Assembly: GCF_965208355.1 (NCBI RefSeq)
Contig: NZ_CBDBOM010000003.1
Span: forward strand, 1,217,394-1,281,393
DNA length: 64,000 nucleotides
Direction: 5' to 3'
Origin: Candidatus Poriferisocius sp.
GTDB lineage: Bacteria > Actinomycetota > Acidimicrobiia > Acidimicrobiales > Bin134
In this document: positions 10,346 through 56,821 of the stretch, in pieces
How positions within the stretch are numbered: position 1 is the first letter of the stretch
Layout: each line of letters starts with the position of its first letter
Program-made: the position numbers and the translations under genes
The notes under the pieces: model-generated
What the model was told of the DNA's origin: nothing
Seen by the model: the letters and a program-made list of their open reading frames with translations, nothing else
Databases searched by the model: none

Positions 10346-11485
10346 TCAGATACTCCAGATTTGGAGCAGGTCGGGGGCGGTGAACCAGTGGCGGGTGCGT
10401 CCGGGGCTGGAGGATGGGACGTCGATGGGCGACAGGATGCCGCGGGAGGCGAGCGCAGATAGGGCGGTGCGGGCGCTGCGCTCGCTGGTGCCCAGTAGAT
10501 CGGCGACGTCGCCAGCACTCAACAGCGGCTGGGCGGGAAGATGGGGGAGTAGGGCTAGCGCCGAGTGGTCGGCTCGCAGATCGCTGACTGCCTCTTCCCA
10601 TTGAGTCAACAGCGCGCTGGTTTGATCGATGATCTGTTGGGCGGTGGCAGCGGCCCTTTCAGTGTTTTCGGCGAACCACGTGACCCACGGTTCGAGGTCC
10701 CCCTGCTCGAAGAGGCGAAGGCCGGATAAGTAGCCGCCGGGGTCGCGGGCGATGGCCATGCTGATGGGGGCGGTGGATCGGGAGGTCACTCCTTGTCGCC
10801 GCAGGGTTCGGCTGACCAACGCACGACCGAGGCGGCCGTTGCCATCGCCATAGGGGTGGATGGCCTCGAATTGGGCGTGGATCACCGCCGCGTGGGAGAC
10901 CGGGTCGATGTCTTCGGGGTCGGTGTTGGCGAAGGCGATCAGGTCGTCAACCAGCCGAGATATATCCGCGTGCGGCGGGGGAACGTAGGCCGCGTCGAGC
11001 GGCGAACTGCCTCCCACCCACCCCACTGCGGGGCGGAACACTCCGATCATGTCGGGGGGAAGACTCCCATGCTGCATGAGCTGTCGATGCCATCGGTGCA
11101 GCGCGTCGACGGTCAGCGGCTCGTGAGCGGTTTCCAAAGCCCAGTCGATCACGATGAGATTGCCAGCCACCCAGCCAGCGGTGCCGCCTGCGCCGGTTCG
11201 CTCCGCAATCAGGACCGACTCAATGGGCTCGCGCAGTCCCTCGATTCCCGAGGATGCCACCCCCTCATTGCGCAGAAGGAGCCTGGCCATGGCCTCCCAA
11301 CGGTCGGGCAGCCGGGCGTCGGCGAGCCGCAAAGCAGCACATGCCCGCTCGCAAGCCCGCGCCGCAGAGGCAGACAGCTCCGCGGGGCGCTCTCGAAGAA
11401 GGGCCGGGACCCACGCCTGGACCGGTCGGCCATTCCAGTCGACCTCAACCGAATATCCCGAATAGTCTTCCGAATCCGGCTCCAT
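10346..11485 (-). CDS. Fic family protein (AMPylase-type) with C-terminal winged-helix region
   Basis: 379 aa. Fic motif HPYGDGNGRLGR is intact. An N-terminal SSGIEG fits the (S/T)xxxE(G/N) inhibitory helix of class II Fic proteins. Confidence 0.85.
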   Translation of the reverse strand: MEPDSEDYSGYSVEVDWNGRPVQAWVPALLRERPAELSASAARACERACAALRLADARLPDRWEAMARLLLRNEGVASSGIEGLREPIESVLIAERTGAGGTAGWVAGNLIVIDWALETAHEPLTVDALHRWHRQLMQHGSLPPDMIGVFRPAVGWVGGSSPLDAAYVPPPHADISRLVDDLIAFANTDPEDIDPVSHAAVIHAQFEAIHPYGDGNGRLGRALVSRTLRRQGVTSRSTAPISMAIARDPGGYLSGLRLFEQGDLEPWVTWFAENTERAAATAQQIIDQTSALLTQWEEAVSDLRADHSALALLPHLPAQPLLSAGDVADLLGTSERSARTALSALASRGILSPIDVPSSSPGRTRHWFTAPDLLQIWSI

Positions 11486-11537
11486 TTCGGAAGACTACCA
11501 TCTAGTCTTCCGAATCCAGCTCCATTTCGGAAGACTA
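11463..11537. promoter_or_regulatory. two tandem copies (period 40 bp) of a 35-bp palindromic element spanning the fic start codon
   Basis: The sequence TAGTCTTCCGAA-N11-TTCGGAAGACTA occurs at 11463-11497 and again at 11503-11537, with one mismatch. It lies between the divergent fic and RCC1-like genes. Confidence 0.6.
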
Positions 11538-11636
11538 TTGACCTATTATTCTGAAACTAGTGGCGGCGCGGGAGTCAGATACCGAAGCGGACTCAGCGTG
11601 CCACAACTACCGCAGGCCTTTACACTCGGCGCTCAC

Positions 11637-13997
11637 ATGTTGGTCCTGGCAAGAATCCGTGTTCGAACCGGCCTCGCGCTCGCAGTGGTGCCAGCCGTGC
11701 TTGCGGTGTCGGTGTTGGTGGCAGAGTCTGGGGTGTTGGCTCAGTCGGCGGCCGATGTGGAGACGCGAGATCGATTGATCGCCGATCAGGAGAACCTTTT
11801 GAACACCTATCGGTGCCGGTTCAGTGTGGACGTGCAAGCGGTTCCGGGCGGTTGTCCAGAGCCAGATGTTGTGTCGCCAGGGGTAGCACCCCAGAGCCCG
11901 TCGCAGCATGACATCGACGTGCGTGACGGGCTGATCCAGAACCAAGAGGCGCTGTTGAATACCTATCGGTGTCGGTTCAACATCGACACCGAGGTGGTCC
12001 CTGGCGGCTGTGGCGAGTCGACAGTTGACCACGCTGCCTCTGGCATCGAGGCTAGATGGCTTCGTGATCCGACTTGCCGCAACGTCTATCGCTGGTGGAA
12101 CGGTGAGCAATGGACAGACAAGGTGGCGAACGACGGGATTGCGAGCACTGATCCTCTCCGAAACGACGACAATTTGTTGCCTCCCAGGACGACTAGCGAT
12201 GAGCGAGACTGCATCGGGCCGGACTGGCTGCCAGACCCCACCTGCAGAAACACGTATCGGTGGTGGGACGGCCAGCAGTGGACTGACAGGGTGTGGAACG
12301 ACGGGGCTAGGGGCACTGACCCGCTTCAAAGCGGAGAGAACCCGTCGCCGCCTGTCATGGGCGAGACACCTGACTGCACCGATGACCAGACCAGCGAATC
12401 CGAATCGATAACTCCCTCTACCGACCCTCTAGCCAAGGCACCAGCAGAAGTAGGCATCTCGGCCGGCGCTACCAATTCGTGCGCGTTACGGGCCAATGGG
12501 AAGGCGGTTTGCTGGGGTGGCAACGATGTCGGTCAGATAGATGCCCCTGAGGGTACTTTCATTGCCATTTCCACCAAATACAGACTCTCGTGTGGGCTGC
12601 GCGAAGACGGCACCGTGGAGTGTTGGGGCGACAATACCTACGGACAGCTGGAAGTTCCGACGGGCAGCTACAGCACAATCTCCGCAGGCTATAGCCACGC
12701 TTGCGGGCTGCGAATGGACGGATCAGCCATTTGCTGGGGCCGCAACAACCACGGTCAGCTGGACGCCCCCAAAGGAGCATTCATCGCATTGTCAGTTGGC
12801 AGTATCCACGCTTGCGGGCTGCGAATCGACGGATCAGCTATTTGCTGGGGCAGTAACAAATTTGGCAAGTTGGACGCCCCCAAAGGAGCATTCACTGCTG
12901 TATCTGCCGGATGGACGTATTCGTGTGGGCTGCGCGATGACGGCACCGCCGTATGCTGGGGGAGCAATAGCGATGGTCAGCTCGACGTGCCGGAAGGCCA
13001 TTACAACAGCCTCTCATCCGGCGGCAACCACGCTTGCGGATTGCGGGAAGACGGCACCGCCGTATGCTGGGGCCGCAACAGAGATGGCCAGGCCGACCCT
13101 CCCAAGGGAACATATGCCGGAGTTTCGGCTGGCACTGTTCATTCTTGCGCCAAAACCGCCGATGGCGGAATCACGTGCTGGGGCGGGAACGGATTCGGCC
13201 AAGCCGACACCCCCGGCGCCAAATACACGGCGGTTTACGCAGGTTCTCAACACTCATGTGGATTGAGAGACGACGGTGCTCTCATTTGCTTTGGATTCGA
13301 TTTTGCTGGCGAAACCAAGCCTCCCAGTGGCAGCTTCAAAGCCGTCTCGGCTGGCAGCCAGTACACCTGCGGTTTGCGTACCAATGGAACTGCCGTGTGT
13401 TGGGGTAGCGAAGTCTCAGGCCGAACCCGTGCTCGCGGTGGGACCTTTACGGCGATCTCTGCCGGAAGTGTCCACGTATGCGGATTGAGGGCCAGTGGGA
13501 CTGTGGTTTGCTGGGGTGGGAACAGATCCGGCCAAGCCGACGCGCCTGCGGGCCTTTATTCCGCGATTTCCGCTGGCGGGGCACACTCTTGTGCATTGAG
13601 GGCCAGTGGGACTGTGGTTTGCTGGGGCGAAAACAATTTTGGCCAGCTCGACGTGCCCGAAGGAGCCTATACGGCGATCGCTGCTGGCTCTTCTCATACA
13701 TGCGGGTTGAGGATGGATGGGACCATCACCTGCTGGGGCAAAGACGGGGACGATGCCATTGCCTCTGGATCACCTGAAGGTATATTCACCGACGTTTCGG
13801 CCAGATGGTCCCATGCATGCGGGTTGAGGACGGATGGGACCATCACCTGTTGGGGCGAAGACGGACATGGAGAGATTGTCACTAGAACACCTAGGGGAAC
13901 CTTTGCGGCGATCTCTGCCGGGGGTATGCACGTATGCGGGTTGAAGGCGGATGGGACCATCACCTGCTGGGGTATTCCGAGCTACCAGACAAGATAG
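11637..13997 (+). CDS. secreted RCC1-like beta-propeller repeat protein (14 blades) with N-terminal Cys-pair modules and two DUF2510-like WW motifs
   Basis: ATG 11637 gives the signal peptide MLVLARIRVRTGLALAVVPAVLAVSVLVAESGVLAQS. This is followed by 2x the RDxLI..YRC..VPGGC module and 2x WLxDPTCRNxYRWWxGxQWTD. Fourteen units of the SAGxxHxCGLRxDGTxxCWGxNxxGQxDxP type follow. The ORF-track TTG start at 11538 is rejected. Confidence 0.8.
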   Translation: MLVLARIRVRTGLALAVVPAVLAVSVLVAESGVLAQSAADVETRDRLIADQENLLNTYRCRFSVDVQAVPGGCPEPDVVSPGVAPQSPSQHDIDVRDGLIQNQEALLNTYRCRFNIDTEVVPGGCGESTVDHAASGIEARWLRDPTCRNVYRWWNGEQWTDKVANDGIASTDPLRNDDNLLPPRTTSDERDCIGPDWLPDPTCRNTYRWWDGQQWTDRVWNDGARGTDPLQSGENPSPPVMGETPDCTDDQTSESESITPSTDPLAKAPAEVGISAGATNSCALRANGKAVCWGGNDVGQIDAPEGTFIAISTKYRLSCGLREDGTVECWGDNTYGQLEVPTGSYSTISAGYSHACGLRMDGSAICWGRNNHGQLDAPKGAFIALSVGSIHACGLRIDGSAICWGSNKFGKLDAPKGAFTAVSAGWTYSCGLRDDGTAVCWGSNSDGQLDVPEGHYNSLSSGGNHACGLREDGTAVCWGRNRDGQADPPKGTYAGVSAGTVHSCAKTADGGITCWGGNGFGQADTPGAKYTAVYAGSQHSCGLRDDGALICFGFDFAGETKPPSGSFKAVSAGSQYTCGLRTNGTAVCWGSEVSGRTRARGGTFTAISAGSVHVCGLRASGTVVCWGGNRSGQADAPAGLYSAISAGGAHSCALRASGTVVCWGENNFGQLDVPEGAYTAIAAGSSHTCGLRMDGTITCWGKDGDDAIASGSPEGIFTDVSARWSHACGLRTDGTITCWGEDGHGEIVTRTPRGTFAAISAGGMHVCGLKADGTITCWGIPSYQTR

Positions 13998-14482: not shown

Positions 14483-15615
14483 CCCCGCAGTTTGCGCAAC
14501 TCAGCTAGCGCTTGTTCGAGAGCGCTGGCCGCGGCGTCCACGTCTGCATCCGTAGTCGACCACCCCACCGACAGGCGCAGCGAGTGGTGGGCATCCACCC
14601 CCATGGCTTCGAGCACCGGCGACGGCTCCAGCGACTCCGAGGCGCACGAGCTGCCGGAGTGGGCGGCCACCCCGGCCCGGTCCAATGCGATCAGCACGGC
14701 TTGGGGCTCCACGTCGTCGATGCCCAGGCACACCAGATGGGGGAGGCACTCGGTGGGGTGGCCATAGAGCTCGACACCCTCAATGCTCTGAGCCAGGTCG
14801 CGCAGCTTGTCGGTGTGGAATTGGGCTCGGCTGGCCTCCTGCTCCAAGCCGCCGTCCTCGAGCACAGCGCATGCCGCGGCAAAGCCGGCGATGGCCGCGC
14901 CGTTCTCCAGACCGGCCCGGCGAGCCCGTTCCTGGTCGCCGCCCTCCAAGAGAGGCACTAGGCGCAGGCCGCGGCGCACCAGCAAGGCACCGATGCCCGG
15001 CGGTCCCCCAAACTTGTGGGCGCTGATGGACATCAAATCGGCGCCGGTCTCGGCAAAATCGATCGGAACCTGGCCCGCGGCCGCGGCGGCATCTATATGG
15101 ATGAGCACTTCCGGCGATCGCTCACGGCAAGCCGCCACCATCTCGGCCACCGGCTGCGCCGTGCCCACCTCGTGGTTGGCCCACTGGCAGTGGACGGCGG
15201 CGGTGTCGGGCCCGATGGCCGCGGCCATCTCGGCGGGGTCCACCCTCCCGGTGCTGTCCACTCCCACCACAGTGGCCTGGTAGTCGTTCGCTTCCAGCCG
15301 CTCAACCGACAGCCGCACCGCCGAATGCTCTACCGCGCTGAGCACCTGATGGGTTCCCCGGTACGACGATCCCCGCACCGCGGCGGCGATCGACTCGGTA
15401 GCACCGCTAGTGAACACCACCTCCCGCGAGCGGGCGCCGAAGCAATCGGCCACCTGCTGGCGGGCCTGCTCGATCTCATAGCGGGCGGTGAGCGCCTCGG
15501 CGTGCATACGGGAGGGGTCGCCGTGGCCGGCGGCCCACCACTGGTTCATGGCCGACAGCGCCTCGGGTCGGAGGGGAGAGGTGGACGCGTGGTCGAGATA
15601 GTGGCGTCGGGTCAC
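14479..15615 (-). CDS. cysteine desulfurase (class V aminotransferase, NifS/IscS-like)
   Basis: 378 aa, GTG start. PLP-lysine region SISAHKFGGPPGIG and catalytic-Cys region HSGSSCAS are present. Confidence 0.88.
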   Translation of the reverse strand: MTRRHYLDHASTSPLRPEALSAMNQWWAAGHGDPSRMHAEALTARYEIEQARQQVADCFGARSREVVFTSGATESIAAAVRGSSYRGTHQVLSAVEHSAVRLSVERLEANDYQATVVGVDSTGRVDPAEMAAAIGPDTAAVHCQWANHEVGTAQPVAEMVAACRERSPEVLIHIDAAAAAGQVPIDFAETGADLMSISAHKFGGPPGIGALLVRRGLRLVPLLEGGDQERARRAGLENGAAIAGFAAACAVLEDGGLEQEASRAQFHTDKLRDLAQSIEGVELYGHPTECLPHLVCLGIDDVEPQAVLIALDRAGVAAHSGSSCASESLEPSPVLEAMGVDAHHSLRLSVGWSTTDADVDAAASALEQALAELRKLRG

Positions 15616-15688
15616 GGCACTTGAGGGGTCATAGCGCGGGGTTGGTCACGGCACAGGGATTTCTGAGTCGATGCCGTAATCTACCGGC

Positions 15689-23188: not shown

Positions 23189-23682
23189 CAGTTGGAGCAG
23201 GGGCACCAAGTGCCGTCGTCGTTGAGCGGAGCGCCGCAGTACCGGCATGGGGGACGGCCCGCGGCCACCACCTGTCGGGCCCGGGCGACAAAGCCGGCCA
23301 CCTGGCTTTGAGTGATCCGGAACCGAGCGGTGGCCAGATCGTCGTCTTCTTCTTCCTGGGTGGGCATCTCCGTTGCCATTATGAGCATTCGGTCGGCGTC
23401 GGCGTCGTAGCCGATCCCTATGTTGCCCACCGTCCACTCGGATTCCAGAGGCTCTATCAGGCCGATGTCGGCCTCCGGCACGATGGCATCTGGGTCGTCG
23501 CTGATCTCCCTGAGGGCCCCATCCAGATACTCCGCCAGCGCGGCCACCTGCTGTTTTTCCAGCTTGAGCGACACCAGCGTGCCGGTGATGCCCGCTTGGA
23601 GATAGAACACCCGTTGGCCGGGAGGCCCGATGGTGCCCACCGTGAAATGCTCAAGATCGTTCAGGTCGAAAGAAGCGCTCAT
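23188..23682 (-). CDS. DUF3090-family protein
   Basis: 164 aa, MSASFDLNDLEHFTVGTIGPPGQRVFYLQA..., with a C-terminal CRYCGAPLNDDGTWCPC zinc-ribbon-like end. It sits between the phosphomutase-like and SCO1664-like genes, as recalled for this actinobacterial trio. Confidence 0.7.
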   Translation of the reverse strand: MSASFDLNDLEHFTVGTIGPPGQRVFYLQAGITGTLVSLKLEKQQVAALAEYLDGALREISDDPDAIVPEADIGLIEPLESEWTVGNIGIGYDADADRMLIMATEMPTQEEEDDDLATARFRITQSQVAGFVARARQVVAAGRPPCRYCGAPLNDDGTWCPCSN

Positions 23683-23726
23683 GACGGCTCAAGGTCGTTC
23701 AGGTCGAAAGAAGCGCTCATGACGGC
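23649..23726. repeat. 38-bp tandem duplication (2 copies, 1 mismatch) covering the phosphomutase stop / DUF3090 start junction
   Basis: The 40-nt string gctcaag[a/g]tcgttcaggtcgaaagaagcgctcatgacggc occurs at 23649-23688 and again at 23687-23726. Confidence 0.95.
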
Positions 23727-25125: not shown

Positions 25126-25569
25126 ATGGTTCGCGACTTCGACGGATCGGGCGATACCGTTGGGCCCGTGACGAAGACCCGTTTGCTGGCGATTGTGGCT
25201 GCGCTGATTCTGGTAGCAGCCGCCTGCGGCAGCTCCGGCGCGCCCACTTCTTGGGACGACAATGCCGAGGACTATTGCCCGAGCGGAGGTGAACCCTGTG
25301 AGTCCGATGTTGAGCCCAACGTGGGCCAGCCCGAGCGGAACTTCCGCGATGGATGCAGGGAAGCCGGCAAAGACGACCTGGACCAGCAGGTTCAAGCGAA
25401 TTTGGACGATGTGTGCAAGTGCGGCTTCGACCGGATCAGGGACAGCTTGACCTTCGAGCAGTTCAAAGAGCTTGACGACGATCTGCGCAGCAACATCAAT
25501 GCCGACTTGACCGAAGAGGTGAGCCAGATCATGCGCCAGTGCATCTTGGAGGAATCGGGGCTGGGCTAG
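25126..25569 (+). CDS. Cys-rich lipoprotein, function unknown
   Basis: TKTRLLAIVAALILVAAACGSSG carries an LVAAAC lipobox, and seven further Cys follow. The start is either ATG 25126 or GTG 25168. Confidence 0.6.
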   Translation: MVRDFDGSGDTVGPVTKTRLLAIVAALILVAAACGSSGAPTSWDDNAEDYCPSGGEPCESDVEPNVGQPERNFRDGCREAGKDDLDQQVQANLDDVCKCGFDRIRDSLTFEQFKELDDDLRSNINADLTEEVSQIMRQCILEESGLG

Positions 25570-25611
25570 CAGCCCGCTGAGGGCAGATGCCCCCTCAGAC
25601 TCCTACCCGGC

Positions 25612-26802
25612 TCAGACCCCTACTCGGACCGCGCTCTCGGCCCACTCGGGCCAGCGCTGGCGGCTCTTGGCGGCCAGCTTGTGCATCAGGGCCACCGCGC
25701 CCGGGTCGTCGTCGCCGGGGCGGGCCTGGATCACCCCGTCGTCCAGCATGGCATTGATAACGGCTCGCCCCAGTTCGGTGCGGACCACGGTGAGGGTCCA
25801 GTCGGAGAGATCTCCGATGCCCCCGGTTGAGATGTCGGCGTGCTCGGCAGCGAAATCAGGGCAGAGGTTGCAGCCCTCCCGGGTCCAGGCGTGGCACTCC
25901 TTGAGGTTGATCTCGTGGTAGTCGCCGTTCTTCATCCACACCTGGAACACGCCCTTGATGTTCATCTTGGCGATCTGGTCGGTGGGCAAGCCGTACTTGA
26001 CCCAGAACAGCTCCTCGAACATGGAGTCGTCGAAGCTCTTTGAGCACAGCAGCCCGATGTTCAACTTGATGGGACGGCCCACCTTGCCCACCTTGCGGTT
26101 CCACATCACCGGTCCGATGGAGGTCTGACAGCTCATGCCCACCAGGGCCAGGTTCTCCAGCCCTCGCTCCTTGGCCTCCCGGTAGGCCAGGGGGTTGGCC
26201 GAATACGTGTAGCGGCTGCCCGCGCCCCGCAGCACCTCTTCCCGGTTGACGGCCAGGCCCGGCACTGCCTTCCAGCCGTCGGTGTCGCCGCCCTCCAAAA
26301 ATGAGGTGAGGGCGCCGTCGATGACGTCGTTCTCCAGGCACCAGATCAAGATGGCCGACACCAGCCCGCCGTCTTGGCCCACCTCGTACACGTAGTCGTC
26401 GCTGGCTCGCACCAGCAGGATGTCGCTGTAGATGCCGGAGACCTCTTCCTCGGTGCGGATGCGCCCAAACAGGTGCTCGTCGGCCTCGGCCTCCCAGGTG
26501 CGGAACCGGGGACAGGCCCGAGTGCAGGAAGTACACCCCTTCTGGCCGTGGATGCAGTCAGACAGGCCCAGCTCCTCCTCCAGGTGGAAGGGCTTGTACT
26601 GGCCAGGCTCGTGCTTGTAGCCGATCACATCATGAGGGCAGGCGATCACGCAGCCCGCGCACCCCGTGCACAGCCCGGTGTCGATGACCTCCTCGTAGAG
26701 TTCCTTCCACTGGTGCTTCCAGCGAACCTTGGCCTCAGCCACCCTGAAACTTTGCCACGCCCAGCATGTGATTTGGTCATTCAAAACGCATTTGCCCAGC
26801 AA
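25612..26802 (-). CDS. coenzyme F420 hydrogenase/dehydrogenase beta-subunit family protein (FrhB/FdhB-like)
   Basis: Contains the ferredoxin motif CTGCAGCVIACP and a second Cys cluster CIHGQKGCTSCTRACP, followed by an FrhB_FdhB-like body. An in-frame GTG at 26742 is a plausible true start. Confidence 0.72.
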   Translation of the reverse strand: MLGKCVLNDQITCWAWQSFRVAEAKVRWKHQWKELYEEVIDTGLCTGCAGCVIACPHDVIGYKHEPGQYKPFHLEEELGLSDCIHGQKGCTSCTRACPRFRTWEAEADEHLFGRIRTEEEVSGIYSDILLVRASDDYVYEVGQDGGLVSAILIWCLENDVIDGALTSFLEGGDTDGWKAVPGLAVNREEVLRGAGSRYTYSANPLAYREAKERGLENLALVGMSCQTSIGPVMWNRKVGKVGRPIKLNIGLLCSKSFDDSMFEELFWVKYGLPTDQIAKMNIKGVFQVWMKNGDYHEINLKECHAWTREGCNLCPDFAAEHADISTGGIGDLSDWTLTVVRTELGRAVINAMLDDGVIQARPGDDDPGAVALMHKLAAKSRQRWPEWAESAVRVGV

Positions 26803-29093: not shown

Positions 29094-31115
29094 ATGCCCG
29101 CCCCATACAGCCTGTTCAATCAGCGTCTTCCAATGGGCGTGGTTGCTGTGCTCGCAGTCGTGGTGGGCTTGTTGGTGTCGCATCTCGGCGTTGTTGGGGC
29201 TAGCGCGCAACCTGAACCCGAGTCCCAGCCCACTCCCCAAGATATTCAACACCGCGACCAGCTAATCGCCAACCAGGAGAACCTGCTGAACACTTACCGG
29301 TGCATGTTCGGGGTTGATGTCGACGCGGTCCCGGGGCAGTGCCCGAACCCCATGGTCGTCTCCCCCGGAGCCACGCCAGTAAGCCCCACCCAACAAGACC
29401 TGGCGGTGCGCGACCGGCTCATCGCCGATCAAGAAGATCTGCTCAACGTCTACCGCTGCCGTTTCGACGTCGACACCCAACTCGTACCCGGCGGCTGCAC
29501 TGACCAACCCGACCCCCAACCAACCGGCCAACCAGCAGCCGGATTTATCGCCATCTCAGCTGGCGGCGACCATTCGTGCGGAATCAGAATCGACCAAACC
29601 GCCGTCTGCTGGGGCCACAACGGTCTCGGGCAGGCGGACGCGCCCGCAGGCGCGTTCACTGCCATCTCCGCCGGCGGCGGCCATTCGTGCGGGATCAGGG
29701 CCGACCAAACCGCCGTCTGCTGGGGCCACAACAGTCACGGGCAGGCGGACGCGCCCGCAGGCGCGTTCACCGCCATCTCCGCCGGCAGCGGCCATTCGTG
29801 TGGGATCAGGGCCGACCGCACCGCCGTCTGCTGGGGCAATGGCAACTCCGGGCAGGCGGACGCGCCCGCAGGCGCGTTCACTGCCATCTCAGCTGGCGGC
29901 GGCCATTCGTGCGGGATCAGGGCCGACCGCACCGCCGTCTGCTGGGGCCACAACGGTCACGGGCAGGCGGACGCGCCCGCAGGCGCGTTCACCGCCATCA
30001 CAGCTGGCGGCGGCCATTCGTGCGGAATCAGAACCGACAGCGCCGCAGAATGCTGGGGCCACAACGATGACCTTGACTATGGGCAGGCGGACGCGCCCGC
30101 AGGCGCGTTCACCGCCATCTCCGCCGGTAGCGTCCACTCGTGCGGGATCAGAGCCGACAACACCGCAGAATGCTGGGGCTCCAACGCTCTCTGGCAGGCG
30201 GACGCGCCCGCAGGCGCGTTCACCGCCATCTCCGCCGCCACCGGCCATTCGTGTGGGATCAGAGCCGACCGCACCGCCGTCTGCTGGGGCCACAACGGCT
30301 TCGGGGAGGCCGATGCGCCCGCAGGCGCGTTCACTGCCATCTCCGCCGGCGGCGTCCATTCGTGCGGAATCAGAACCGACAACACCGCAGAATGCTGGGG
30401 GGACCGTTACAAACTCGATCGCTCCGAGGTAGACGCGCCCGCAGGCGCGTTCACCGCCATCTCCGCCGGCGGCAAACATGCCTGCGGGATCCGGGTCGAC
30501 AACACCGCAGAATGCTGGAGCTACAACTTTCACGGGCAGGCGGACGCGCCCGCAGGCGCGTTCACCGCCATCTCCGCCGGCGGCCATTCGTGCGGGATCA
30601 GAGCCGACAACACCGCAGAATGCTGGGGCTCCAACGCTGTCGGGCAGGCGGACGCGCCCGCAGGCGCGTTCACCGCCATCTCCGCCGCCACCGGCCATTC
30701 GTGTGGGATCAGAGCCGACAACACCGCCGTCTGCTGGGGCCACAACTTTCACGGGCAGGCGGACGCGCCCGCAGGCGCGTTCACTGCCATCTCCGCCGGC
30801 GGCAACCATGCCTGCGGGATCAGGGCCGACCGCACCGCCGTCTGCTGGGGCCACAACAGTCACGGGCAGGCGGACGCGCCCGCAGGCGCGTTCACCGCCA
30901 TCTCCGCCGGCGGCGGCCATTCGTGCGGGATCAGGGCCGACCGCACCGCCGTCTGCTGGGGCAATGGCAACTCCGGGCAGGCGGACGCGCCCGCAGGCGC
31001 GTTCACTGCCATCTCAGCTGGCGGCGGCCATTCGTGTGGGATCAGGGCCGACCGCACCGCCGTCTGCTGGAACTGGACGACGAACCTTCCGGCAGGCGTT
31101 TCCTGGGTGTTTTGA
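29094..31115 (+). CDS. secreted RCC1-like beta-propeller repeat protein (14 near-identical blades) with N-terminal Cys-pair modules
   Basis: Signal peptide MGVVAVLAVVVGLLVSHLGVVGASAQP. This is followed by 2x the RDxLI..YRC..VPGxC module and a Pro/Gln linker. Fourteen units GQADAPAGAFTAISAGGGHSCGIRADRTAVCWGHNxH follow. Confidence 0.82.
   Translation: MPAPYSLFNQRLPMGVVAVLAVVVGLLVSHLGVVGASAQPEPESQPTPQDIQHRDQLIANQENLLNTYRCMFGVDVDAVPGQCPNPMVVSPGATPVSPTQQDLAVRDRLIADQEDLLNVYRCRFDVDTQLVPGGCTDQPDPQPTGQPAAGFIAISAGGDHSCGIRIDQTAVCWGHNGLGQADAPAGAFTAISAGGGHSCGIRADQTAVCWGHNSHGQADAPAGAFTAISAGSGHSCGIRADRTAVCWGNGNSGQADAPAGAFTAISAGGGHSCGIRADRTAVCWGHNGHGQADAPAGAFTAITAGGGHSCGIRTDSAAECWGHNDDLDYGQADAPAGAFTAISAGSVHSCGIRADNTAECWGSNALWQADAPAGAFTAISAATGHSCGIRADRTAVCWGHNGFGEADAPAGAFTAISAGGVHSCGIRTDNTAECWGDRYKLDRSEVDAPAGAFTAISAGGKHACGIRVDNTAECWSYNFHGQADAPAGAFTAISAGGHSCGIRADNTAECWGSNAVGQADAPAGAFTAISAATGHSCGIRADNTAVCWGHNFHGQADAPAGAFTAISAGGNHACGIRADRTAVCWGHNSHGQADAPAGAFTAISAGGGHSCGIRADRTAVCWGNGNSGQADAPAGAFTAISAGGGHSCGIRADRTAVCWNWTTNLPAGVSWVF
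29530..31075 (+). repeat. in-frame tandem array of ~111-bp units (108-123 bp) inside the RCC1-like gene
   Basis: The motif caggcggacgcgcccgcaggcgcgttcac recurs at 29631, 29742, 29853, 29964, 30084 and onward. Blades 1-3 are nearly identical to blades 11-13, and blades 5-6 to blades 9-10. Confidence 0.9.
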
Positions 31116-34398: not shown

Positions 34399-34411
34399 GC
34401 GCCCACGGCAG
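34399..34411. repeat. 13-nt copy of the tRNA-Arg 3-prime end; left target-site duplication of the IS element
   Basis: The string gcgcccacggcag is identical to 35701-35713. Confidence 0.8.
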
Positions 34412-35700: not shown

Positions 35701-35774
35701 GCGCCCACGGCAGGATTCGAACCTGCGACCCCTTGCTCCGGAGGCAAGTGCTCTATCCCCTGAGCTACGTGGGC
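35699..35774 (-). tRNA. tRNA-Arg (anticodon CCG)
   Basis: The reverse complement is GCCCACGTAGCTCAGGGGATAGAGCACTTGCCTCCGGAGCAAGGGGTCGCAGGTTCGAATCCTGCCGTGGGCGCCA. It folds as a standard cloverleaf. The terminal CA of the CCA is contributed by the abutting IS end. Confidence 0.9.
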
Positions 35775-45071: not shown

Positions 45072-45213
45072 GTGTCATCTAAAATACATTGTTTAGATTG
45101 AAAAGCAATGAAGACTCTTCGGTCGGGGAAATCTGGTTAGATTGACCAGATCCACCCGGTACGGTGGAGAAGGTGAGCGACCCTTCCAAGACGCGAATCG
45201 GCGTGGTGAAGCG

Positions 45214-46527
45214 ATGAACGATTCTCCTCGCAAACGAATCGGCGTAGGCGTTCTGGGCTGTGGAAACGTCGGCTCGGCGTTTGTCGGACTGCTTGAGGAG
45301 CAGCGGTCGGCGATCGCGGAACGCACCGGAATGGAATTGGACGTGGTGCGGGTGGCAGTGCGAAGTACGTCGCGCGACCGCGACGTGGTCTTGGCCGATG
45401 GGGTGCTGACCACCGACGCCGCCTCCGTGGTGAACGACCCCGAAGTGGACGTGGTGGTGGAGCTGATCGGAGGCATCGAGCCCGCCCGTGAGCTGCTGGC
45501 CGCCGCGCTGAAGCTGGGCAAGCCGGTGGTCACCGGAAACAAGGAGCTGCTGGCCAACTATGGCGCCGAGCTATATGCCGCCGCTGACGCCGCCGGAGTG
45601 GATCTGCTGTTCGAGGCCGCCGTCGGCGGTGGGATTCCCCTGATTCGCCCCCTCCGGGAGTCTTTGGCCGCAGAGCCATTGCGGCGGGTGATGGGCATTG
45701 TCAACGGCACCACCAACTACATCTTGAGCCAGATGACCGAGCACGGCACCAGCTATCACGACGCCCTGGCCGACGCGCAGTCACTGGGATTCGCCGAGCG
45801 CGACCCCACTGCCGACGTGGAGGGGTTCGACGCCGCGGCCAAAGCATCCATCATCGCCACAGTGGCCTTCGGGGCCCGGGTGCTGGCCGGCAGCGTGTAC
45901 CGGGAGGGCATCTCCGGCATCAGCTCCGCCGATATCGCCCACGCCCACCGGCTGGGTTATGTGGTCAAGCTGCTGGCCATTGCCGAGCAGGTTGGCCAGG
46001 TCGAGGGCAAGCCCGAGCTAGCCGTGCGGGTTCATCCGGCGATGGTGCCGGTCGGCCATCCGCTGGCCTCGGTGCGCGATTCGTTCAACGCGGTCTTCGT
46101 GGAGGGCGACGCAGTGGGAGAGCTGATGCTCTACGGACGAGGTGCTGGCGGCCGTCCAACGGCCAGCGCCGTGCTGGGCGACCTCATCGACGCGGCCGGC
46201 AACCGGTGCCGAGGCACTTGGACCCCGATCGGTGATTTGGGCGAGGCGGTTGTCTGCTCAATCGATGACCTGGAGTCGGAGTACTACATCATCATGGAGG
46301 TGCTCGACCGGCCGGGCGTGCTGGCCGCAGTGGCCGGGGTATTCGGACGCCACGGGGTGAGCATCCGCTCCATGGAGCAGGAGGGCTTGGGCGACCAGGC
46401 TCGACTGGTGTTCATCACCCACGAGGCCACCGAGCGAGATGTGCAGGCCACATTGGGCGACCTTCGAGAGCTGGACTCTGTGCGGGGAATGCCCGCGCTG
46501 TTGCGGGTGGTCAGCCAGGGCTCATGA
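45214..46527 (+). CDS. hom: homoserine dehydrogenase
   Basis: From ATG 45214 the product is MNDSPRKRIGVGVLGCGNVGSAF (Rossmann motif). The catalytic domain and a C-terminal ACT domain follow. There is an ATGA overlap with thrC. Confidence 0.92.
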   Translation: MNDSPRKRIGVGVLGCGNVGSAFVGLLEEQRSAIAERTGMELDVVRVAVRSTSRDRDVVLADGVLTTDAASVVNDPEVDVVVELIGGIEPARELLAAALKLGKPVVTGNKELLANYGAELYAAADAAGVDLLFEAAVGGGIPLIRPLRESLAAEPLRRVMGIVNGTTNYILSQMTEHGTSYHDALADAQSLGFAERDPTADVEGFDAAAKASIIATVAFGARVLAGSVYREGISGISSADIAHAHRLGYVVKLLAIAEQVGQVEGKPELAVRVHPAMVPVGHPLASVRDSFNAVFVEGDAVGELMLYGRGAGGRPTASAVLGDLIDAAGNRCRGTWTPIGDLGEAVVCSIDDLESEYYIIMEVLDRPGVLAAVAGVFGRHGVSIRSMEQEGLGDQARLVFITHEATERDVQATLGDLRELDSVRGMPALLRVVSQGS

Positions 46528-47924: not shown

Positions 47925-48025
47925 CGGCTGACCACAATTGATCTGGCAGAATCGAGCATCGTGAAGTTCGTGGTGTGTGTAGCCAGCCTGCGGTGCTGTC
48001 GAACAGAGCAAGAGAGTCGTTCATC

Positions 48026-49174
48026 GTGAAATACGTGGTGTGCATACCCGACGGGTGCTCGGATCTGCCGGTACCTGAGCTTGACGGGGCCACCCCATTG
48101 GAAGCGGCTCGCACTCCGGTGCTCGACGCCCTGGCTGCCCGGGGACAGGTGGGATTGGCCCAGGTCATCCCTCCGGGAATGCCGCCGGGTAGCGACGTGG
48201 GCAACATGTCCATCTTCGGGTACGACCCCACCCGCTACCACACGGGGCGCTCGCCCATTGAAGCTGCCGCACTAGGCCTCACCCTCACCCCCGACCAGGT
48301 GGCCTACCGCTGCAATCTGGTAACGGTGACCGAAGACGGCATCATGGCCGACTTCTCCGGAGGCCACCCCGACTCTGCTCGGGCCGCCGAGGTCATAGCC
48401 GCACTGGACGCGGAATTGGGGGGCGAGGTCAGCTTTCATGCCGGGGTTCAGTACCGCCACACGATGATTGCTCCGGCCGAGTGGGCCGACGCGATCTGCA
48501 CTCCGCCCCACGAGCTCTCCGATCTGCCGGTGGTGGGACCCCAGGGCCCAGCCGGGCCCAAGCTCGCCTCTTTGGAGGAGGCTTCCCGGTCGGTGGTGCC
48601 CAGATTCGGATTGAAGGCCAACCGGATTTGGCTGTGGGGTCAGGGATTCCAGCCGGAGATGCCCTCCTTCCGGGAGATGCACGGCGTGGAAGCTGGGATG
48701 GTCAGCGCAGTCGACTTGGTGCGAGGGATCGGGGCGCTCACCGGCATGACGGTGGCCAATGTGCCGGGAGCCACCGCCTGGTACGACACCAATTACGAGG
48801 GGAAGCGAGATGCAGCTCTGGCCGGTTTGGCCGATGGCGCAGACCTGTATGCAATCCACGTGGAGGCCAGTGACGAGGCCGGGCATGAGGGCAATGTGGC
48901 CGAGAAGGTCAGATGCCTGGAGAACTGGGACCGTCGCATCCTGGCCGGTTTGATTGACGGCTTGGATCAATTGGGCCCTTGGCGGCTGCTGCTGCTGCCC
49001 GACCACGCCACACCGCTCACCACCAGGAGCCACATCGATGATCCAGTTCCCTATCTGATTGTCGACTCAGAGGTCGACGGCCCCGGCGGCGTCTACACCG
49101 AACAGGGGGCGGCCTCAGCTGAGGTGGTACCCGGCCATCACCTGATGGGGAGGCTCCTGGCCCGGGCCAGCTAG
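48026..49174 (+). CDS. archaeal-type cofactor-independent phosphoglycerate mutase (ApgM) family protein; candidate non-orthologous homoserine kinase
   Basis: From GTG 48026 the product is VKYVVCIPDGCSDLP..., with the metal-site motif HVEASDEAGHEGN of the alkaline-phosphatase superfamily. It occupies the thrB slot after hom-thrC. Confidence 0.7.
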   Translation: MKYVVCIPDGCSDLPVPELDGATPLEAARTPVLDALAARGQVGLAQVIPPGMPPGSDVGNMSIFGYDPTRYHTGRSPIEAAALGLTLTPDQVAYRCNLVTVTEDGIMADFSGGHPDSARAAEVIAALDAELGGEVSFHAGVQYRHTMIAPAEWADAICTPPHELSDLPVVGPQGPAGPKLASLEEASRSVVPRFGLKANRIWLWGQGFQPEMPSFREMHGVEAGMVSAVDLVRGIGALTGMTVANVPGATAWYDTNYEGKRDAALAGLADGADLYAIHVEASDEAGHEGNVAEKVRCLENWDRRILAGLIDGLDQLGPWRLLLLPDHATPLTTRSHIDDPVPYLIVDSEVDGPGGVYTEQGAASAEVVPGHHLMGRLLARAS

Positions 49175-49451
49175 GCCAAAAAAAGCCTGGAATGTTGCCA
49201 CTGGTGGGCGATTACGGTATTCTTTCGGGCGTTGGAACTGCGGTGTTTCTAGCGGTTCTACGGGAAGCCTTCTGACCACTCGGTCGATTTCGACATTCCT
49301 TTTGTCAGCGTCCCGGTGGTTAATGGCTGCCTAATTCATGCCTTCTGCACTCGCGGATGGCGTGCCGAACAACACGAAGTGCACTCACAAAGCTGTGGCA
49401 CTTCAAGGGAGTAACAAATGCCCTCCAGTTGTGGCGTATCAAGGGAGAAAT

Positions 49452-51200
49452 GTGAGCGTAGAGACCACTGAGCTGTCTCGGTCGAAACTTCAGCGCAAAG
49501 ACCGGGCGCAGCTTCAGATAATTGCAAGGGCCATGGGCGGACGCCCAGAGCCCAAAGCCCGAAAAGCAGACATCGTGGACATGATCCTCGAGCTCGCCGG
49601 CGTCGACGGCGACGGCCAAGCTGCAGCCGATTCCGCTGGCAATGGGGCCGCCCCCGCTCAGGCGGAGTCCATCGAGGAATCCAAAGAAGAGCAGGGCGAA
49701 GAGCCCGTTTCTGAGGGCGAGTCGCCCGACACCCAGCAGGACGAGGCTCAGCAGGACGACGCTCCCGAGGCGCGGCAAGACGCACCGGCCGAAGAAGCCG
49801 GAGAGGAAGAGAAGACGGACCGCAGCCGCTCCGATAAAGACCGCGATAATCGCGGTGACGACGACCGTCCCCGCCAGGACCGCGATCGCCAAGACCGCTC
49901 CCGCCAAGAGGGGGATCGCCAGGATCGCTCCCGTCAGGATCGGGATCGCCAAGACCGTCCCCGCCAACAGGATGACCAGCCCGAGATCGGCAACCGTCGC
50001 CGGCGGCGTCGGGGCCGCAATGACCGGGATCGGCCCGAGGAACCCTGGGAGGGCGATCCCATCGCCATCTCAGGCCACTTGGACCTGAGAGACGACGGCT
50101 ATGGATTCCTGCGGATAAAGGGCTTTCAGCCCAGCAAGGAAGATGCCTACGTATCGGTCAAGCAAGTCCGCCAGTTCGGGTTGCGCAAGGGAGACTTTCT
50201 GGCCGGAGGCTGCCGCCCGGCCACCAGAAACGAGAAGAACCCCGCCCTTCTGCACATCGACAGCGTTAACGGGGTGGCCCCCGAGTCGGTCAAGCAGCGG
50301 CCCAAGTTCGAGGATCTGACTCCTCTATTCCCCGACGAGCAACTCCGACTGGAGCGCGACGACGATCCGGCCAACATGACCTGCCGCATCATCGACCTCT
50401 TGTCGCCCATCGGCAAGGGTCAACGCGGTCTGATCGTGTCACCACCCAAAGCGGGCAAGACCACGATCATGAAGGAGATCGCCCGATCCATCGAGCTGAA
50501 CAACCCCGAAGTGCATCTCCTGGTGCTACTAGTGGACGAGCGCCCTGAAGAGGTCACCGACATGCGGCGCTGGCTGCTGCGGGGTGAGGTGGCGGCATCC
50601 ACCTTCGACCGCCCGGCCGAAGAGCACACCCACGTGGCCGAGATGACCATCGAGCGGGCCAAGCGCATGGTGGAGCGGGGCGAAGACGTTGTGATCGTCC
50701 TCGACGGCATCACCCGCCTGTCCAGGGCCTACAACTTGGCCGCACCGGCCACCGGGCGAATTATGTCCGGCGGCATCGACACCGGTGCGTTGTATCCCCC
50801 CAAGAAGTTCTTCGGCGCGGCCCGCAACGTGGAGGAGGGCGGCTCGCTCACCATCCTGGCCACCGCGCTGGTGGAGACCGGATCCCGGATGGACGAGGTC
50901 ATCTTCGAGGAGTTCAAGGGCACCGGCAATATGGAGCTGCGCCTGGACCGGCACATCGCCGAGCGGCGCATCTACCCGGCCATCAACGTGGACGCCTCCT
51001 CCACCCGTCACGAGGAGCTGCTCTTCGAGCGCCGTCAGCTCCAGCAGGTCTGGAAGCTGCGCCGGGTGCTCAACGGCCTCTCCAGCGACGGCAACGGGGG
51101 CGGGGCAGCCGGCTTGGAGTTGCTGATGGATCGACTGCGCACTTTCCCCAACAACGCCGCATTCCTAGAGGAAGTGGCGAAAGGCCCCGCTGGGGTGTGA
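49452..51200 (+). CDS. rho: transcription termination factor Rho (with Arg/Asp/Gln-rich N-terminal insertion)
   Basis: GTG 49452 follows AAGGGAG. The Rho_N region is [20 protein letters not shown] low-complexity [10 protein letters not shown] insert is followed by a cold-shock-like RNA-binding domain and Walker [10 protein letters not shown]. Confidence 0.92.
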
Positions 51201-51213
51201 GGCTAGGAGCGAC

Positions 51214-51480
51214 ATGAAGCCCGAAATCCATCCCGAGTACCGCTTGGTGGTGTTTCAGGACACCTCCGCGGGCACGTCCTTTCTCACCCGGTCCACCATT
51301 GAGACCTCCGAGTCGGTGGTGTGGGAGGACGGCAACGAGTACCCCCTGGCCAAGGTGGGGATCTCCAGCGCCAGCCACCCATTCTTCACCGGCCAGATGA
51401 CCATCGTGGACACGGCCGGCCGGGTGGAGCGCTTTGAGCGCCGCTACGGGCATCGCAAGCGGTCGTCCAAAGAGAGCTGA
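51214..51480 (+). CDS. rpmE: 50S ribosomal protein L31, type B (no CxxC zinc motif)
   Basis: 88 aa, [18 protein letters not shown]...[10 protein letters not shown]. Confidence 0.9.
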
Positions 51481-53483: not shown

Positions 53484-53488
53484 TAGGC

Positions 53489-54022
53489 ATGGGCGACGCA
53501 GCCGGACTGGTGGAGATGGCTGTCGCCGAGTTGCGGGCGGGCCGAGCGGTGATCATTCCCACCGACACGGTGTACGGGCTGGCCGCCTTGCCCGAGAACG
53601 TGGACCTGCTGTTCGAGCTCAAGCAGCGCCCTCCGGACAAGGCGGTGGCCATCCTGGTGGCCCATCCCGCCGATGCCGAACAGCTCTTCGACCCGCTGCC
53701 CGCCACTCGGCGGCTCATGGAGGCCTGCTGGCCGGGAGCGCTAACCATCGTCCAAGACGGCCATGGCGTGCGCTGTCCCGACCACCCGCTGGTGCAGACC
53801 CTGGCTGCCGCGGTTGGACCGATCGCCACCACCAGCGCCAATCTGAGCGGCCAGCCCACCCCCCACACCGCGGCGGAAGCTGCCGACGCCTTTCCAGCCG
53901 TGCAGCTGGTAATCGACGGCGGCCGACTCCAAGCTCCCGCGTCCACGGTTGTGGAGGTGACCGAAGACGGGCTCAACATCCTTCGCCAAGGGGCCGTTGA
54001 CGTGGAGGGGATCGTGGGATGA
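53489..54022 (+). CDS. tsaC: L-threonylcarbamoyladenylate synthase (YrdC-domain only, TsaC/Sua5 family)
   Basis: 177 aa with IIPTDTVYGLAA and TTSANLSGQP motifs. It occupies the position equivalent to Mycobacterium Rv1301. Confidence 0.85.
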   Translation: MGDAAGLVEMAVAELRAGRAVIIPTDTVYGLAALPENVDLLFELKQRPPDKAVAILVAHPADAEQLFDPLPATRRLMEACWPGALTIVQDGHGVRCPDHPLVQTLAAAVGPIATTSANLSGQPTPHTAAEAADAFPAVQLVIDGGRLQAPASTVVEVTEDGLNILRQGAVDVEGIVG

Positions 54023-55029: not shown

Positions 55030-55089
55030 AAGGACAAGATCGCCGTAAAGAGTCATCAATCAGGACGCAGGCTGGGTAGATTGACCCCT

Positions 55090-55545
55090 ATGGCGCGAAT
55101 CGCCGCCGGGGCCGACCACGCTGGGGTGCAGTTGAAGGACGTGCTGGTGTCCCATTTGCGGGAGTTGGGCCACGACGTCGTTGATTGCGGCACCCATGGT
55201 CTCGACCGGGTGGACTATCCCGACTACGGCGAGGCGGTGGCCCGCAAGGTAACTGCTGGCGAGGCCGAGTTGGGTCTGTGCGTGTGCGGCACCGGCATTG
55301 GGATCGCCATGGCGGCCAACAAGGTGCCTGGTGTGCGTGCGGCCACCGTGCACGATGTGACCTCAGCCCGGCTGACCCGAGAGCACAATGATGCCAACGT
55401 GATCTGCTTGGGCGAGCGGCTGGTTGGTACCGAGTTGGCCAAGGAAGCCTTGGAGGCATTTCTCGAGGCAACCTTCGAGGAGGGCCGCCACGTTGCTCGG
55501 GTGGCCAAGATCGACGCCCTATTGCCCAATCAGGATGCCCAATGA
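55090..55545 (+). CDS. rpiB: ribose-5-phosphate isomerase B
   Basis: MARIAAGADHAGVQLKD plus the GLCVCGTGIGIAMAANK catalytic Cys region. The ORF-track TTG at 55081 is an alternative start. Confidence 0.9.
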   Translation: MARIAAGADHAGVQLKDVLVSHLRELGHDVVDCGTHGLDRVDYPDYGEAVARKVTAGEAELGLCVCGTGIGIAMAANKVPGVRAATVHDVTSARLTREHNDANVICLGERLVGTELAKEALEAFLEATFEEGRHVARVAKIDALLPNQDAQ

Positions 55546-55573
55546 GAATGCCCGATGAAAAGGTAGCGCCTTG

Positions 55574-56821
55574 ATGTGGCCGGATAGCAGTAAAGACCCG
55601 GTGTTCGACATGGTCCGCCGGGAGGTGGAGCGCCAGAACACCACCGTGCAGCTCATTGCCTCGGAGAACTTCGCCTCGCCCGCGGTGTTGAGCGCCACCG
55701 GATCGGTGCTCACCAACAAGTACAGCGAGGGGTACCCCGGTCGCCGCTACTACGGCGGCAACATGGTGATCGACGAGGTGGAGTCCATCGCCCGGGAGCG
55801 GGCCACCGCCCTGTTCGGGGCCGATCACGCCAATGTGCAGCCCCACTCGGGAGCCAACGCCAACGTGGGCGCCTACCTGGCCGTGTTGGAGCCGGGAGAC
55901 ACTGTTCTGGGCATGAGCCTGGACCATGGTGGCCACCTCACCCACGGCTCACCGGTGAACATCAGCGGGCGTACCTACCGATTCGTGGCCTATGGGGTGA
56001 CCCCCAGCGATGAGCGAATCGACTACGACCAGATACGGGATCTGGCCCTCGAGCACCAGCCCAAGCTCATCGTGGCCGGCGCCACCGCCTATCCCCGCAT
56101 CATCGATCCGGCGCCGTTCCGGGCCATCGCCGACGAGGTGGGCGCCCTGTTCATGTTCGACGCCGCCCACATTGCCGGGCTGATCGCCGGAGGCATGCAC
56201 CCCAACCCGGTGCCTCACTCCGACATCGTCACCTTCACCACCCACAAGACGCTAAGAGGCCCCCGGGGCGGGGCCATCTTGTGTACCGAGGATCTCGCCC
56301 CGGCGATAGACAAGGCTATGTTCCCCGGCCTTCAGGGCGGTCCTCTGGAGCACGTGATCGCGGCCAAGGCGGTGGCCTTCGGCGAAGCCGCCACCCCGGA
56401 GTTCGCCGACTATGCCGCTCGAATCGTGGAGAACAGCGGCGCGTTGGCCAAGGGTCTGGCCGAGGAGGGGTTCCGCATGGTGTCGGGCGGCAGCGACAAC
56501 CACCTGCTGCTGGTGGATCTGCGGACCTTTGACGACGACCTGACCGGCAAGGTGGCCCAGGAGGTGCTCGACCGGGCGGGAATCACCCTCAATAAGAACA
56601 CCGTGCCCGATGACCCTCGTTCCCCCTTCGTGGCCAGCGGGGTGCGGATCGGCACCCCGGCTACCACCACCCAGGGAATGGGACCGGCGGAGATGGGTCT
56701 AATCGCGGGCATGATCGGCCGCACTCTGCGCCAGCGAGACGACGAAGCTGTGGTGGCCGACGTCCGATCTGAGGTTGCCGACCTCTGTGGTCGGTTCACC
56801 CCGTATTCGCTGGCTGGCTAG
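55574..56821 (+). CDS. glyA: serine hydroxymethyltransferase
   Basis: PLP-Lys region [17 protein letters not shown] 55574 follows an in-frame TTG at 55571. Confidence 0.95.

Follow-up and report, generated by a model that had tools for sequence, protein, structure and literature searches.

Short tandem duplications across the boundaries of neighbouring co-directional genes recur throughout the genome of a Candidatus Poriferisocius sp. and in other genomes of its genus. The stretch from which we worked (the window) comprises 64,000 nt of this genome (G000:C3:1217394-1281393, where G000 is the genome itself, of 3.72 Mb, 65% GC and 3 contigs). The duplications are polymorphic between relatives and have arisen more than once at the same junction, their period is biased towards 3n+2, and the short upstream open reading frames (uORFs) that they leave end on, or within a few nucleotides of, the true start codon of the downstream gene. 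The original prediction had proposed such recurring start-region duplications from the window alone, and they hold across the genome and the genus. We think it probable that slippage-type duplications are frequent and that selection filters them, a translated copy of a start persisting where it terminates on or near the real start. Read from sequence comparison, the pattern suggests selection on the passage of ribosomes between neighbouring genes. The value of the result lies in the genome-wide rule and not in any single locus; what is new here is the census of a genome and its genus together with its phase signature.

Gene calls for G000 were made with a home-made caller (dicodon log-odds, trained on long ORFs with high GC3, with iterative refinement of the starts), which gave 3126 genes and 87% coding sequence; the training rule was loosened for genomes of 50-54% GC. 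Close relatives, retrieved through the Hom protein, are metagenome-assembled genomes of sponge-associated Acidimicrobiia (Candidatus Poriferisocius), many of them complete chromosomes, and come from independent short-read and long-read projects. For comparison, 800 kb were taken from G018 (same genus) and likewise from G029 and G024 (other families), and 400 kb from G013. Genomes of the genus do not count as independent samples, and the outgroup samples are small. Tandem repeats were collected by a diagonal scan at offsets 8-100 plus control offsets. TRF and a +1/-2 diagonal scan overlook the diverged copies at hom and nifS, where comparative insertions and deletions (indels) were required.

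Duplicated junctions in the window

All six repeat loci of the original prediction are present in the sequence, and Pfam matches agree with the gene names given to them (Fic, class-V aminotransferase, which is NifS-like, DUF3090, hom, thrC, ApgM-like PhosphMutase, rpiB and glyA). They had been taken to share one structure. This is true of five, which, when set against congeneric genomes, are insertions of the expected length (DUF3090, 38 bp; hom, 41; ApgM-like, 65; NifS-like, 34; rpiB/glyA, 13 x 3), whereas the fic locus differs and is treated at the end. Overlaps of the ATGA or TGATG type were read directly at 23679-23682, 45214-45217, 48026-48029 and 55572-55576, the last being that of the rpiB/glyA mini-ORF with glyA.

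The clearest copy lies on the minus strand at 23649-23724, where the stop of a His_Phos_1 gene and the start of the DUF3090 gene that follows it meet in an ATGA. A 38-bp unit stands there twice (23649-23686 and 23687-23724; 37 of 38 positions identical). The His_Phos_1 TGA (23719-23717) overlaps the ATG of a uORF, MSASFDLNDLEPS, which runs from 23720 to 23679 (13 codons and TGA) and whose stop in turn overlaps the true DUF3090 ATG at 23682-23680. Among 18 aligned genus relatives, 16 have a single ATGA overlap without the 38 bp, and the unit is common only to G000 and its nearest relative, G007. The same junction has changed independently in two other genomes: G002 has a 62-bp duplication with a uORF, MSPSFDLSSLEHSASGGGRRR, ending in ATGA, and G008 has four extra 44-bp units, each a mini-ORF (MKTNSTADLKALVPS) that resembles the C-terminus of the upstream gene, chained ATGA to ATGA. 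All three changes (38, 62 and 4 x 44 bp) have a unit length of 3n+2, and the junction thus exists with 1, 2 or 5 units. Given the turnover by large indels (see below), three events at one junction in 19 genomes are unremarkable. The borders of the 38-bp unit have no more than a 2-nt GC in common.

Two further units, upstream of hom and of the ApgM-like gene, are old and diverged. On the plus strand at 45166-45247, a 41-bp duplication copies the Shine-Dalgarno (SD) sequence, the start and 10 codons of hom; the uORF (GTG 45173 to TGA 45215-45217; MSDPSKTRIGVVKR) overlaps the hom ATG at 45214, which opens MNDSPRKRIGVGV. The insertion is carried by the window, L005, L007, L013 and L011. The 14 of 18 close relatives without it begin Hom at the GTG of copy 1, GTGAGCGACCCTTCC. 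The ApgM-like (PhosphMutase) start region, on the plus strand at 47948-48049, carries a 65-bp duplication (29/37 identity at offset 65), in which a uORF of 22 codons (GTG 47961 to TGA 48027-48029) overlaps the true GTG at 48026 as GTGA. Ten genomes carry the insertion and 7 lack it, with 16 relatives compared. In all five hom carriers the unit is free of indels and the uORF is open and ends on the start; in all 10 ApgM carriers the unit still measures exactly 65 nt, its frame is open and it ends in GTGA. At both loci the adjacent leader has large indels. The uORF peptides, by contrast, are free to vary among carriers of either unit. When the hom and ApgM uORFs were tested as regulatory leader peptides or attenuators, neither a conserved peptide nor runs of regulatory codons were found, and the hom uORF has no Thr/Ile run.

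The divergence of these copies raises the question of whether the upstream copies at hom, the ApgM-like gene and nifS are stubs, that is, resident starts left behind by homology-facilitated illegitimate recombination. Similarity between the copies is only 68-78% at hom and ApgM, and still carriers and non-carriers occur among strains 98% identical at the locus, and the bases directly after the hom unit differ above average between the window and L001/L002; both points would fit such an origin. However, the copies follow each other head-to-tail throughout, with a single fixed offset, unit-free relatives differ by exactly one unit length, and L011 has its own, more self-similar hom pair with unchanged boundaries. 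Many other loci are near-identical tandem copies, and recombination may spread alleles without creating them. We regard the stub explanation as very improbable.

The NifS-like (Aminotran_5) start carries an old 34-bp duplication on the minus strand at 15607-15654, of which only two 11-mers (GTGCCGTGACC, at 15654-15644 and 15620-15610) are visible in this genome. About five such 11-mer repeats are expected by chance per window, and we had considered this one a coincidence. That candidate explanation was overturned by the relatives: the locus is exactly 34 nt shorter in 8 of 25 genus genomes, and the missing stretch (33-34 nt, window ~15607-15639) lies between the 11-mers, so that the duplication is real. 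Its uORF (GTG 15649 to TGA 15629; VTNPAL) ends 13 nt ahead of the true GTG at 15615. Alleles of the relatives here and at rpiB/glyA are defined by length and position.

Across the rpiB stop (TGA 55543-55545), on the plus strand at 55523-55576, a 13-nt unit is repeated three times. The resulting mini-ORF (ATG 55542 to TGA 55574) forms an ATGA overlap with the rpiB stop and a TGATG overlap with the glyA ATG at 55574. About 10 length alleles exist in the genus, ranging from -26 to +100 nt; the commonest (14 of 25 genomes) is 26 nt, that is two units, shorter than that of the window.

A seventh locus precedes rho. On the plus strand at 49391-49454, a 36-bp unit containing the rho SD (CAAGGGAG) and start is present twice, and the upstream ATG at 49418 opens a uORF that crosses the rho GTG at 49452 out of frame; Rho domains are encoded from 49452 onwards. 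The unit is found once in L005, L006, L011, L014 and L016, twice in the window and most relatives, and three times in L012. A tree of the hom-thrC region requires at least three changes for each of the characters hom, ApgM and rho, whose distribution is patchy even among near-identical strains. We also noted that rho apparently starts at AUGUG (ATG 49450 / GTG 49452; 49450-49454), and that its N-terminal region has in-frame 15/30-bp repeats at 49863-49971.

The variable number of units at one junction (rho, 1-3; DUF3090, 1, 2 or 5; rpiB/glyA, about 10 alleles) could mean that the coupled mini-ORF chains are a selected device that tunes the amount of the downstream protein, with gain and loss of units serving as a reversible translational rheostat. 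Old units do hold their length and frame, and tight junctions are enriched three- to five-fold in the census below. On the other hand, the peptide sequences are not conserved, presence is patchy down to near-identical strains, housekeeping genes show both allelic states, units of the same size class also lie where convergent genes end and a start plays no part, other intergenic types show equal indel turnover, and no link of copy number with habitat or phenotype is apparent. A selected reinitiation or regulatory device had been one of the two options of the original prediction, and we consider it unlikely.

Census, reading-frame phase and stop positions

Genome-wide, G000 contains 329 local short tandem loci, against 28-60 at control offsets. 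Where the repeat lies inside a gene, the period is divisible by three in 180 of 188 cases, and frameshift selection therefore governs where duplications survive. For the remaining loci we used a null in which each observed unit is placed uniformly wherever no gene is disrupted. Tight co-directional junctions, with a stop and a start both in the unit, were observed 15 times against 4.5 expected (p = 7e-5), and 13 times against 2.5 (p = 2e-6) for periods not divisible by three. Duplications spanning only a stop were also in excess (25 against 15.7; p = 0.018), and purely intergenic ones were in deficit (59 against 83.5; p = 0.003). The enrichment at starts that the original prediction would lead one to expect did not reach significance for units spanning only a start (14 against 9.3; p = 0.09) and is confined to the tight junctions. 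These stand three- to five-fold above neutral placement, ratios that are upper estimates because uncalled genes inflate the intergenic space.

It had also been argued that only duplications including a start escape frameshift selection. The frame selection within genes is borne out, but stop-codon-spanning duplications are at least as common as start-spanning ones and occur between convergent genes as well; some units resemble the C-terminus of the upstream gene and not the N-terminus of the downstream gene. Near-identical examples outside the window are a 34-bp duplication (100%) at C3:1528688 and a 59-bp one (98%) at C3:2816583.

The units are locus-specific. In an all-against-all BLAST of 141 units, the only matches were CRISPR and segmental duplicates, and this comparison ruled out a mobile family resembling the interspersed repetitive units of mycobacteria (MIRUs). 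A short MIRU-like or MITE-like repeat (a MITE being a miniature inverted-repeat transposable element) inserting at start codons would produce the geometry seen here, which equals that described for MIRUs in the passages of a review that concern them (PMC12548453), and the outgroup G029 does have a dispersed 59-62-bp family between genes. In G000, however, units are dissimilar between loci and equal to the local gene sequence. Assembly artefact is contradicted by the presence of the same insertions in assemblies that were made independently, from short or long reads, for different samples, and by the near absence of frameshifting repeats within genes (8/188), since random assembly errors would not respect frame. 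Mobile repeats or artefacts are, of all the explanations weighed here, those to which we give the least credence.

The periods carry a phase signature. In the junction class, 3n+2, 3n+1 and 3n units stand at 11:2:2 (n = 15). Among ~25 loci where both copies keep a start in the frame of the downstream gene, 19 are 3n+2 and 6 are 3n+1 (p = 0.015). The stops follow suit: 3n+2 uORFs that reach the true start stop at +1 (NTGA) in 13 of 15 cases, and at other 3n+2 loci the stop lies at -2 (TGATG), -8 or +10/+13. All five 3n+1 uORFs that reach the start have stopped by +8, against a null in which only 9.4% of genes have such a stop in that frame (p = 7e-6). Duplications that are still detectable and have an NTGA at both ends of the mini-ORF number 13.

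Mini-ORFs of this form were counted irrespective of visible duplication. A relay is defined as an ORF with its start in a -4 overlap with the upstream stop and its end in a -4 overlap with the downstream start. Of 2184 co-directional pairs, 338 combine a gap of 8-150 nt with a start codon that overlaps the upstream stop at -4; 74 of these are ATGA-to-ATGA relays, where a conservative null predicts 34.3 (p = 3e-9). Consistent with this, intergenic gaps of 25-45 nt are in relay phase in 123 cases, compared to 71 and 78 in the other two phases. Relays also retain traces of a duplication origin. With d >= 20, a diagonal identity of at least 50% was found in 24 of 62 (39%), compared to 25 of 973 (2.6%) non-relay pairs. 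Their unit sizes cluster sharply at 38-41 nt, with a weaker second mode at 17 and a dip at 23-29. A unit corresponding to one complete ribosome-binding site was rejected as the cause of the 38-41-nt mode, as the position of the borders around the ATG ranges between -4..+34 and -40..+4. Co-directional intergenic gaps as a whole peak at 13, 28, 34, 37 and 52 nt. Within the window, a six-codon relay mini-ORF (GTGA...ATGA; VRLGAT) links the rho stop to the start of rpmE (L31) on the plus strand at 51197-51217; its membership of the class could be due to chance.

The same scan in related genomes showed that the duplications recur in the genus. Relays exceed expectation in G018 (12 against 5.0; p = 0.006), with counts of 5 against 3.3 in G029, 1 against 0.7 in G024 and 1 against 0.3 in G013. 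The 800 kb of G024 hold no boundary-spanning duplications, and the boundary repeats of G029 belong to its dispersed 59-62-bp family, which is distinct from the local duplications of G000. A G018 junction (#87) has a 35-bp duplication that is absent in G000, and another (#134) has a chain of six mini-ORFs of 14-20 nt, ATGA to ATGA, where the ortholog in G000 (G000:C3:1922185-1922262) is a single 20-nt relay.

An indel spectrum of 296 orthologous G018 junctions anchored in G000 provides a count that is independent of start calls. At co-directional junctions, indels of at least 25 nt stand at 15:3:8 (3n+2 : 3n+1 : 3n), compared to 4:8:5 at convergent and divergent ones. Either genome carries about half of the insertions, most of which are recognisable junction duplications. 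A mutational hot spot at co-directional junctions was not supported, as indels of at least 25 nt are as frequent at the other types; we therefore read the data as a filter and not a hot spot.

These counts bear on the other option of the original prediction, a neutral footprint of slippage in which duplications are tolerated wherever the frames stay intact and the phase and stop patterns are noise or a by-product of ATGA overlaps. The frame selection that it invoked stands, and slippage is a probable source. In its favour, start-only duplications are not significantly enriched (14 against 9.3), duplications on the stop side and at convergent ends are common, and NTGA is there by definition at ancestral ATGA junctions. 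Neutrality nevertheless fails on the 3n+2 bias and on the stops near the start. An excess of 3n+2 over 3n+1 appears in three partly independent counts (11:2, 19:6 and 15:3), the start-reaching 3n+1 uORFs end within 8 nt of the start in 5/5 cases against the 9.4% null, and the controls that are not co-directional are unbiased (4:8:5). Since pure neutrality would leave both the phase bias and the stop geometry unexplained, a translational filter is needed, and we hold the purely neutral account to be improbable. Individual elements, on the other hand, are probably nearly neutral.

A filter on copied starts and its relation to known systems

The mechanism that we favour begins with short tandem duplications (13-65 bp, most commonly 35-41) that would arise often and genome-wide, probably by replication slippage or microhomology-mediated template switching. 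Within genes, their survival would be limited to periods divisible by three. A duplication at a gene boundary would spare both genes, and the copied start codon would add a short upstream ORF, which retains its original ribosome-loading context and is presumably translated. The survivors would be those in which this uORF ends at the real start or a few nucleotides from it. Where the ancestral junction is an ATGA overlap between genes A and B, a 3n+2 unit, and a unit of no other phase, would automatically place the stop on the duplicated TGA that overlaps the ATG of B; the copied start reads the first codons of B and then the last codons of A in the frame of A, so that the frame stays open until A's duplicated TGA. 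Ribosomes terminating on the true start could re-initiate there or at least vacate it, and would not pass over it out of frame. Later slippage would shift the number of units between 1 and 5, and units would be deleted by precise loss or by recombination, so that unit-bearing and unit-free alleles could coexist for long across the genus while the spare copy decays.

From these patterns we infer translation of the mini-ORFs and a filter at the level of translation. The filter may work by blocking out-of-frame read-through over the start, and not by preserving an obligatory re-initiation. This is possible because SD motifs are as frequent in genes downstream of relays as in others, a result that gave no support to the candidate explanation that such genes lack an SD and depend on re-initiation.

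Several observations weigh against a translational filter on slippage products. The equal frequency of SD motifs is itself one. The tests of phase draw on 13-26 events (p = 0.007-0.03), and the starts of the home-made caller are imperfect, with hom, fic and nifS truncated. No overlap is formed by the units at rho (36 nt, 3n) and nifS (34 nt, 3n+1, with the uORF stop 13 nt upstream). Neither the 38-41-nt size mode nor the 23-29-nt trough is predicted by the model. Large indels affect 13% of co-directional junctions, against 17% and 19% of convergent and divergent ones, and at hom and ApgM, whose units have diverged, a tandem duplication that diverged later is indistinguishable from a recombination stub.

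A speculative reading of the size mode, to which we give little weight, is that the 38-41-nt unit and the number of units act as a translation ruler, for example one ribosome footprint between the sites of termination and re-initiation, and that ATGA-linked chains are heritable and reversible rheostats. If so, such rheostats would set the expression ratio of neighbouring genes, and the spectrum of junction lengths would record the rules of ribosome hand-over in vivo.

The closest known parallel is the MIRUs (Supply et al. 1997), which insert at start codons and carry an internal ORF coupled at -4 nt, as described in the parts of the literature that deal with their structure (PMC12548453, a 2025 review; PMC3184786). 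The logic itself is therefore not undescribed, as coupling of an ORF within a repeat is known from mycobacteria (PMC12548453). MIRUs are likewise units of 40-100 bp, often tandem, variable in number and situated between operon genes in an actinobacterial lineage, as set out in the same sections of the review (PMC12548453). The units described here share with them their size (33-65 bp) and their place at co-directional junctions, and 74 mini-ORFs have NTGA at both ends. They differ in that MIRUs, according to the portions of these sources that describe them, are one dispersed family of ~40-50 copies of a common consensus that is thought to be mobile, whereas each unit here copies its own junction. 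Relatives here differ by exactly one local unit, and the lineage is Acidimicrobiia, not Mycobacterium. The duplications may thus be viewed as a counterpart of local origin to MIRU-type repeats. In full-text literature searches, junction duplications of local origin were not found described as a class that extends over a genome.

Termination-reinitiation at ATGA and TGATG overlaps, and its need for an overlap or a very short distance, are established, as stated in the pertinent parts of earlier work (Huber et al. 2019, PMC6728339; PMC10666635). The overlaps here are the same, and the mini-ORFs restore them at both ends after an insertion of 30-60 nt. Known cases, however, couple two real genes, whereas the junctions here appear to hold one or more non-functional spacer ORFs, in chains of up to 4-6. 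Similarly, uORFs that 'deliver' ribosomes and synthetic bicistronic designs have a short leader ORF overlapping the main start, as outlined in a portion of the review above (PMC12548453, refs 75, 78); here, by contrast, the arrangement is accidental, through duplication of the gene's own start.

The duplications also resemble variable-number tandem repeats (VNTRs) or minisatellites formed by slipped-strand mispairing, in their head-to-tail copies, copy-number polymorphism between strains and repeated gain and loss. In classical contingency loci, genes are switched on and off by frameshifting. The survivors here differ from VNTRs in that they disturb neither gene and have a period biased to 3n+2.

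Operon junctions are usually seen as static, and ~13% of orthologous co-directional junctions differ by at least 25 nt between two congeners. The reading-frame signature, with its 3n+2 excess and stops on the true start, constitutes comparative evidence for selection on ribosome traffic, and it stems from uncultured bacteria beyond the reach of experiment. Many short intergenic 'ORFs' and odd spacers of 31-37 nt are explained as decayed scars of duplication. Annotation of start codons is affected as well, because gene callers can choose the wrong copy.

The fic palindromes and other repeats

The fic locus had been read as a start-codon duplication of the same class, a reading that we abandon. 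At 11463-11537, in the divergent region between fic and an RCC1-repeat gene (no strand assigned), two 35-nt palindromes (arms TAGTCTTCCGAA/TTCGGAAGACTA) lie 40 nt apart. The copies are identical at 34 of 35 positions and each is a palindrome with 12-bp arms; the fic ATG (11485) is inside the loop of the proximal one and the second stands 40 nt upstream. In 8 relatives the locus has CTTCCGAAA-N9-11-TTTCGGAAG twice, again 40 nt apart, with different loops. Because the relatives carry two such palindromes at this distance, fic falls outside the junction-duplication class. Judged by its sequence, the pair is a conserved set of operator-like palindromes whose copies became homogenised in the lineage of G000; it probably serves as a dual operator, or else forms an RNA hairpin across the start. 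The all-against-all unit comparison gave no second occurrence of the palindromes elsewhere in this genome.

The window contains an IS481-family element at 34406-35703 (transposase 34485-35645; Pfam rve, rve_3 and a weak LZ_Tnp_IS481). As the original prediction had noted, its left end has a 23-bp internal duplication: the inverted-repeat core (GACATAGGAAC) occurs twice, ~23 nt apart, and both copies match the single right end. Two RCC1-repeat genes (11538-13997 and 29094-31115) are built of near-identical 111-bp units, with 13.6 copies and 83% matches at 29549-31070; the first was overlooked by the home-made caller, which suggests an atypical composition. Imperfect 17-bp and 23-bp tandem repeats lie at 25594-25664, at a convergent junction between an unassigned 147-aa ORF (25126-25569) and an FrhB/FdhB-like gene (25612-26742, minus strand).

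Two observations were made outside the window. In G000, a CRISPR array at G000:C2:188933-191833 has a 29-nt repeat (GGGCATACCCCCGCGAGTGCGGGGAGAAC) with a 61-nt period. The outgroup G029 (Acidimicrobiales, 73% GC; C5:1000001-1800000) carries its dispersed 59-62-bp family as tandem arrays between genes, near chunk positions ~16486, 64289, 134849, 140258, 494569 and 711759, with some units of 68 or 83 bp. The arrays have a common core, GAGGCCGACGTGGCC, and a GGTGAG(T/C)GA motif, and one of them extends over ~1 kb with ~17 copies; this family looks like a MIRU-like dispersed minisatellite outside Mycobacterium.

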